From the NCBI RefSeq assembly GCF_003334335.1, contig NZ_QOWQ01000006.1: a stretch of 64,000 nt of DNA; one strand, 5' to 3'. Below the pieces are notes generated by a model, which saw nothing but the letters and a program-made list of their open reading frames with translations, did not search any database and was not told the DNA's origin. Position 1 is the stretch's first letter. The number at the start of each line of letters is the position of its first letter. Source of the DNA: Escherichia coli. GTDB taxonomy: Bacteria; Pseudomonadota; Gammaproteobacteria; Enterobacterales; Enterobacteriaceae. The translations under genes and the position numbers were made by a program. This document shows, one piece after another, positions 20,120 through 20,275 of this stretch.

Positions 20120-20275
20120 TCCGCTTATTCTCAGGGCGGGGCGAAATTCCCCACCGGCGGTAAATCAACTCAGTTGAAAGCCCGCGAGCGCTTTGGGTGC
20201 GAACTCAAAGGACAGCAGATCCGGTGTAATTCCGGGGCCGACGGTTAGAGTCCGGATGGGAGAGAGTAACGATTC
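20120..20275 (+). promoter_or_regulatory. FMN riboswitch (RFN element) in the ribB leader
   Basis: Conserved RFN core motifs (CAGGGCGGGGCGAAATTCCCCACCGGCGGTAAA ... GATCCGGTGTAATTCCGGGGCCGACGGTTAGAGTCCGGATGGGAGA) about 100 nt upstream of the ribB ATG; boundaries approximate. Confidence 0.85.

Follow-up and report, generated by a model that had tools for sequence, protein, structure and literature searches.

The leader of the ribB gene in the 64-kb stretch of Escherichia coli DNA analysed here (hereafter 'the window') contains the E. coli ribB FMN riboswitch, an already known element whose biology is of the textbook kind rather than new. It is almost certainly a leader RNA that acts in cis to switch riboflavin synthesis off at high levels of flavin mononucleotide (FMN). 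A preliminary description, which had placed a highly conserved RFN aptamer in the ribB leader at 20120-20275, was right on the element, the gene and the length of the platform, and is supported here with two refinements and no contradictions: the platform lacks an intrinsic terminator and instead sequesters the start site (acting, according to the literature, together with Rho), and it continues past the ATG into codons 1-3 of ribB. The riboswitch thereby provides a clean positive control, in which a structured RNA was recognised from raw sequence with near-exact coordinates.

Identity of the aptamer and genomic setting

A scan of positions 18000-23000 against all 4227 families of Rfam 15 returned a single match above gathering, to RF00050 (FMN; RFN element) at 20123-20271 on the plus strand, with a score of 120.9 bits (gathering score 66.2 bits; E-value 8.6e-29) and with model positions 1-138 of 138 covered without truncation. 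This significant, full-length match to the Rfam FMN model bears out the aptamer of the preliminary description, the interval of which encloses it with 3-4 nt to spare; an Rfam scan of all 64 kb of the window gave no other FMN match. Within the window sequence, 27 of the 28 consensus pairs of RF00050 are canonical. The aptamer, with its helices P1-P6, is delimited by the same match, by RefSeq annotation and by pairing across species, and the two strands of P1 lie at 20125-20132 and 20262-20269. In other E. coli genomes, RefSeq/PGAP gives a 'riboswitch; FMN riboswitch' feature with identical boundaries, which, together with the RF00050 match, confirms the earlier assignment to a known cis-regulatory RNA. 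In the feature table obtained for the curated MG1655 record (NC_000913.3, 3183813-3185130), neither a riboswitch nor an sroG feature is listed between ribB and ubiK; set against the PGAP-annotated genomes, this is an inconsistency of annotation and not a biological difference.

The regulated gene, ribB (3,4-dihydroxy-2-butanone-4-phosphate synthase), occupies 20375-21028 on the plus strand (TIGR00506, 287.7 bits against a cutoff of 177; RefSeq), and ubiK lies divergently at 19711-20001 on the minus strand (RefSeq; NCBIfam NF047835 UbiK, 150.1 bits against a cutoff of 100). The aptamer is on the same strand as ribB, and 103 nt separate its end from the ribB ATG at 20375, in agreement with the earlier estimate of about 100 nt of expression platform; the same layout is found in 25 other species. 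The intergenic region between the two genes measures 373 nt (20002-20374) and is made up of the 252-nt ribB leader and of 121 nt that hold the divergent promoters, so that the leader accounts, as had been proposed, for most of a long spacer. Two plus-strand reading frames (20193-20327 and 20284-20424), considered as possible leader peptides, were rejected as coding; they cross stretches in which indels occur and length varies from species to species, and the element has, as previously stated, no conserved open reading frame of its own.

Upstream of the aptamer, a probable ribB promoter can be read at 20088-20116 (plus strand), with a -35 element TTGCTG (20088-20093), a 17-bp spacer and a -10 element TATAGT (20111-20116). 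In 18 of 19 enterobacterial species, TTGC and TATAGT are retained at a constant distance from each other, and the sequence between them varies; a simple promoter scan did not pick up this promoter, the -35 element of which matches at only three of six positions. Transcription would then start at about 20123, the position at which the published constructs also begin (nt 1). At the other end of the transcription unit, a consensus scan located a terminator-like hairpin with a T-run after ribB (21059-21090, plus strand; a 13-bp stem followed by ATTTTT).

Several features of the surrounding DNA may be recorded here. In at least three E. coli genomes (for example cM8a, positions 1964-2661 of locus L122), an IS1 element lies in the ribB-yqiD interval, about 35 nt past the stop codon of ribB, at a site that corresponds approximately to the window position of the terminator-like hairpin; the riboswitch is intact in those genomes. 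The yqiD gene itself, a small RefSeq-annotated reading frame of 56 amino acids (21290-21460, plus strand), has no NCBIfam match. The fimbrial usher gene yqiG (16312-18825, minus strand), which is interrupted by IS2 in K-12 strains, is an intact reading frame of 837 amino acids in the window, and the window is for that reason assigned to a non-K-12 E. coli.

The 1.5 kb around the riboswitch (19600-21100) was found in all of the complete E. coli genomes searched (5426/5426). Promoter and leader (20080-20404) are at least 99% identical in 5391 of these genomes, a level reached by the surrounding 1.5 kb in only 1568; the leader is therefore more constrained than its neighbours. The ubiK-riboswitch-ribB region occurs at 5429 places in the 5426 records, with one copy on a plasmid and at least one genome harboring two copies.

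Alternative helices of the expression platform

The numbering of the published ribB riboswitch can be transferred to the window base for base, with nt 1 at 20123 and with C175, G176, U181 and the AUG at 253 falling on c20297, g20298, t20303 and the ATG at 20375. In the same manner, the probe against the 3' strand of P1 (nt 137-146; PMC11571811) corresponds to 20259-20268, the sequestering-stem region at nt 215-227 (PMC11571811) to 20337-20349, the pause sites at 175 and 181 (PMC11571811) to 20297 and 20303, and the pause at 247-249 to 20369-20371.

Start-site sequestration is predicted to involve a 13-bp stem with U254 bulged, in which CUGAUUCUGGUAA (20335-20347) pairs with UUACCAUGAAUCAG (20370-20383, plus strand); the latter strand contains the AUG (20375-20377) as well as ribB codons 2-3. 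The Shine-Dalgarno sequence GAGG (20361-20364), judged from the sequence and the folds, lies in a loop or in a weak inner hairpin that is closed by the sequestering stem, and the inner hairpin with the Shine-Dalgarno sequence is 80.9% paired across the species alignment. The 5' strand of the sequestering stem belongs to a 'switch segment' (20332-20347, plus strand), within which GCCCUGA (20332-20338) can pair with UCAGGGC (20131-20137) as 'anti-P1', the helix of the ON state. The 5' part of anti-P1 (20131-20137) consists of the end of the 5' strand of P1 together with J1/2, and anti-P1 overlaps the sequestering stem by four bases. A further 5 bp, formed by GGUAA (20343-20347) with UUAUU (20125-20129), may extend it.

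A third alternative helix, 'anti*-P1' (20263-20305, plus strand), is that of the ligand-free state; it pairs AGAGUAACG (20263-20271) with CGUUAUUUU (20297-20305), overlaps the 3' strand of P1, coincides base for base with nt 141-149/175-183 as numbered by Eschbach et al. 2024 (PMC11571811) and is present in the unconstrained minimum free energy (MFE) fold. P1 and the three predicted platform helices (the sequestering stem, anti-P1 and anti*-P1) have strands in common and are mutually exclusive, and each is at least 88% paired across species. Also within the platform is a block, ACUCCUAAG (20320-20328, plus strand; ACUCCUCAAG in the Yersinia/Serratia group), which is near-invariant in Enterobacterales and is not conserved in Vibrio. 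This block can pair with GGGAG (20258-20262) at the 3' end of the aptamer, in an extension of anti*-P1 that is 92.3% paired; it may instead form part of a Rho loading site. Finally, a terminator scan found no intrinsic-terminator-like site on the plus strand between 20123 and 20375, its only plus-strand sites being at 19968 and 21059.

Comparative analysis from E. coli to Vibrio

Scanning one genome per species for the conserved P6/J6-1 DNA pattern yielded 120 FMN elements from many phyla, 26 of which are followed by a full-length ribB homologue that starts 100-250 nt downstream. The alignment comprised 25 Enterobacterales and Vibrio loci plus the window (26 species), with omission of Desulfocicer vacuolatum, whose platform differs. 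Because the species were picked by a pattern that lies inside the aptamer, conservation at 20238-20263 is inflated, partly by construction; in addition, invariant pairs are uninformative on structure either way.

Over the 26 species, the helices of the aptamer and the platform are together 94.3% paired. Most of the aptamer pairs are invariant, and P5 displays compensatory changes in two pairs (CG to UA in two species and GC to AU in four). Eleven of the 13 pairs of the sequestering stem never vary (99.4% of cells paired), as is true of six of the seven pairs of anti-P1 (100% paired); the 5-bp extension of anti-P1 is 87.7% paired and anti*-P1 88.7%. The sole variable base common to anti-P1 and the sequestering stem is A216 (20338), which is replaced by G in four species and there retains a G.U pair with both of its partners, as expected of a base that serves two structures. 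No covariation above shuffles or controls was found in anti*-P1 among the 26 species, and none was found in the sequestering stem or anti-P1, where columns show either no change or a change in one of the two strands only; the three putative helices are backed by conservation, not by covariation.

The same conservation extends into the reading frame. Codons 1-3 of ribB (ATG AAT CAG) are identical in 26 of 26 species, wobble bases included, and codons 4-10 vary at synonymous sites; the frozen wobble bases of codons 2-3 indicate selection at the RNA level inside the open reading frame. That the switch segment and these three codons are frozen from E. coli to Vibrio, with RNA-level selection reaching the coding sequence, is a small addition to what is known of the element. 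In the deltaproteobacterium Desulfocicer vacuolatum, an FMN aptamer precedes a ribB homologue (62% identity), but the platform there lacks the CUGAUUCUGGUA / UACCAUGAAUCAG pair; the platform of the Enterobacterales and Vibrio is therefore lineage-specific and not tied to ribB as such.

Folding energies

The MFE fold of 20100-20400 has a z-score of -0.93 and mixes ON and OFF features, so that it is not usable for or against a switch: at -88.1 kcal/mol, the unconstrained fold combines anti*-P1 with the sequestering stem. When the states were enforced, the OFF state reached -69.9 kcal/mol and the ON states -83.2 kcal/mol, or -80.7 kcal/mol with the extension of anti-P1; the OFF state is thus the less stable of the two in these ligand-free constrained folds, as expected. 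If only the 7-bp anti-P1 is enforced, a shortened sequestering stem persists and the start site is not opened in the prediction, whereas with the 5-bp extension enforced as well, the sequestering stem no longer forms in the predicted fold, and A253 and U254 of the start codon are free of pairing. The corresponding duplex energies are -8.7 kcal/mol for P1, -15.0 for anti-P1 and -17.6 for the sequestering stem, and -11.3 kcal/mol for anti*-P1 with its GGGAG/CUCCU extension.

Nearest-neighbour energies alone do not reproduce the switch, and the model therefore requires FMN, tertiary stabilisation and co-transcriptional kinetics. The partner of anti-P1 (nt 210-225) is transcribed before the partner of the sequestering strand (nt 248-261). 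The switch would accordingly be kinetic, with the outcome decided by whichever forms first, FMN-locked P1 or anti-P1, a reading that agrees with the published sensing window.

Mechanism and alternative explanations

The present analysis shows which aptamer is present, the genes around it, the complementary segments with their conservation, and the lack of an intrinsic terminator; the binding of FMN, the dependence on Rho, the pause sites and the sensing window are taken from the literature, and to these may be added a putative promoter and transcription start, a candidate position for the rut site and a possible 5-bp extension of anti-P1. In the mechanism that can be assembled from these elements, transcription would begin at about 20123 and the first 149 nt would fold into the six-helix FMN aptamer. 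If FMN were bound while the polymerase is inside the platform (before the pause at about 20369-20371), P1 (20125-20132 / 20262-20269) would be locked and 20335-20347 left free to pair with 20370-20383. The resulting sequestering stem would bury the AUG, enclose the Shine-Dalgarno sequence and block the start of translation, and the C-rich platform would be exposed, so that Rho would end transcription within the leader. In the absence of FMN, the 3' strand of P1 would be captured by 20297-20305 (anti*-P1), and its 5' strand with J1/2 would pair with 20332-20338, possibly as far as 20347 (anti-P1); by taking the 5' strand of the sequestering stem, anti-P1 would open the start site, mask the entry of Rho and allow ribB to be made.

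Published work on an RNA of this exact sequence agrees with several of these steps. Eschbach et al. 2024 reported that FMN protects the P1 and sequestering strands, the latter (nt 215-227) by RNase H probing (PMC11571811). The full-length ribB riboswitch responds with a Kswitch of 176 nM (approximately 0.2 uM), FMN sensing being best at the first pause, at 175 (23 nM), and poor at the second, at 247 (micromolar) (PMC11571811). In the same study, nt 184-193 became more accessible with FMN (PMC11571811).

As regards Rho, composition points to a candidate loading (rut) region at nt 171-220 (20293-20342, plus strand), a C-rich and G-poor stretch that includes ACUCCUAAG at 20320-20328. Nowhere else in the leader does C clearly exceed G (here 9-12 C and 5-6 G in each 30 nt), and the stretch is partly paired in the modelled ON state. 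The literature likewise places the rut site in the ribB riboswitch or its platform (PMC11571811, PMC10085680). Direct FMN-dependent Rho termination in the ribB leader is credited by later papers to Hollands et al. 2012 (PMC11571811, PMC5499598, PMC12360218), and ribB is given in a 2025 review as the first Rho terminator gated by a riboswitch (PMC12360218). In the ChIP data of Bastet et al. 2017, the rho R66S mutation abolished transcriptional control of ribB, for which the Rho termination score was 3.1 (PMC5499598), and a translation-free, minimal single-molecule system displays ligand-dependent Rho termination on a ribB template (PMC10085680). Deletion of the element derepresses both ribB mRNA and riboflavin output (PMC9885008).

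Three other explanations have to be weighed against this mechanism. The switch might be purely translational, with FMN only hiding the start site, the fall in ribB mRNA following secondarily from Rho polarity in the open reading frame or from faster decay, and no ligand-gated rut site in the leader. The sequestering stem is indeed the best-conserved feature of the platform, the synonymous sites of codons 2-3 are frozen, the rut signal identified here is a bias of C over G in composition only, and an indirect mechanism of this type has been described for thiM by Bastet et al. 2017 (PMC5499598). However, the direct termination in the leader that later papers attribute to Hollands et al. 2012 speaks against it, as does the persistence of ligand-dependent Rho termination on the ribB template in a system that contains no ribosomes (PMC10085680); moreover, the roughly 60 nt of C-rich and partly conserved sequence (including ACUCCUAAG) between the aptamer and the stem would be superfluous for a switch of that kind. 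A purely translational switch is, on balance, improbable.

Still less credible is a Bacillus-type attenuator, in which FMN would let an intrinsic terminator form from a small hairpin at 20277-20293 and the following UUAUUUU (20299-20305), with anti*-P1 in the role of antiterminator. The hairpin covaries and lies upstream of a conserved U-rich tract that is longer in other enterics (7-10 U), and the ribB template displays a Rho-free background termination of 6-16% (PMC10085680). This explanation is nevertheless rejected because the leader contains no intrinsic terminator, the terminator scan having found nothing there; the stem of the hairpin is just 4-5 bp (-5.5 kcal/mol in E. coli), the 6-nt spacer between the hairpin and the U-tract is not the geometry of a terminator, and control is lost in the rho mutant (PMC5499598). 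Equally negligible is the proposal that the element chiefly yields a stable, independently functioning small RNA, SroG, which is active in trans, and that its control of ribB is incidental. The small-RNA name sroG is used for the element in strain and plasmid names, and premature termination would release a fragment that contains the aptamer; yet evidence for a trans target was not found in the literature cited here, all of the conserved pairings are in cis, between the aptamer and the start site of ribB, and deletion of the element derepresses ribB (PMC9885008).

A conserved hairpin upstream of the pause at nt 181

Returning to the FMN- and Rho-dependent leader mechanism, one component of the platform may bear on the timing of FMN sensing. 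The hairpin at nt 155-171 (20277-20293, plus strand; stem CGGG/CCCG) is predicted in every enterobacterial sequence when folded alone. Four of its six pairs change on both sides (10 cells), a value that none of 500 shuffles reached, and it is 85% paired against 34-47% in slid controls. Its 3' end precedes the published pause at 181 (20303) by 10-11 nt.

This hairpin might tentatively be viewed as a conserved, hairpin-stabilised (his-type) pause element that would detain RNA polymerase as soon as the aptamer has emerged, thereby setting the window for FMN sensing. The suggestion stems from the 10-11 nt distance, which is the spacing of a hairpin-stabilised pause, and from the compensatory changes across Enterobacterales; in such a reading, the adjacent U-tract would be used twice, as pause sequence and subsequently as the 3' strand of anti*-P1. 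The reported shortening of the pause at nt 181 by about 40% in the presence of FMN (PMC11571811) counts against the idea, in that a simple pause hairpin does not predict it. No description of this hairpin or of a role for it in pausing was found in the cited literature on the ribB riboswitch, and the proposal is the only, and only mildly, new lead to emerge here.

Relation to known systems

The closest known system is the ribB FMN riboswitch of E. coli K-12 itself (sroG, RF00050), which occupies the same locus, with the same numbering and the same neighbours (ubiK and ribB); nothing of substance differs between the two, although the strain of the window is not K-12. The FMN riboswitch of Bacillus subtilis ribD (ribDEAHT) shares the aptamer family, the ligand, the logic of P1 against an alternative helix, and a kinetically controlled sensing step that is bounded by pause sites. 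It relies, however, upon an intrinsic terminator and antiterminator, in contrast to E. coli ribB, which has no such terminator and combines start-site sequestration with Rho. Leaders in which the state of the ligand likewise decides Rho termination before or early in the gene are those of Salmonella mgtA (Mg2+) and of E. coli thiC, thiM and lysC; among these systems, ribB and mgtA have been described as direct (with a structure-gated rut site) and thiM as indirect, via lost translation (PMC5499598). The ribB riboswitch is established as the feedback sensor for riboflavin synthesis in E. coli and as a model for riboswitch-controlled Rho termination, as well as being a validated antibiotic target (roseoflavin and ribocil).

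Other RNA matches in the window

Elsewhere in the 64-kb window, two tandem, full-length Rfam matches to SIB_RNA lie at 10903-11052 and 11278-11427 on the plus strand (142.1 and 147.7 bits; gathering score 56). We take these to be Sib antitoxin small RNAs of type I toxin-antitoxin pairs, in which case small ibs toxin reading frames would be expected on the opposite strand. The nucleoid-associated noncoding RNA 4 family (naRNA4) matches at 2913-2983 and 54101-54171 on the plus strand (79.3 and 61.0 bits against a gathering score of 59.5), and these matches are probably REP-type repeats. A full-length match to the ES173 small RNA family lies at 48257-48320 on the minus strand (99 bits against a gathering score of 90).
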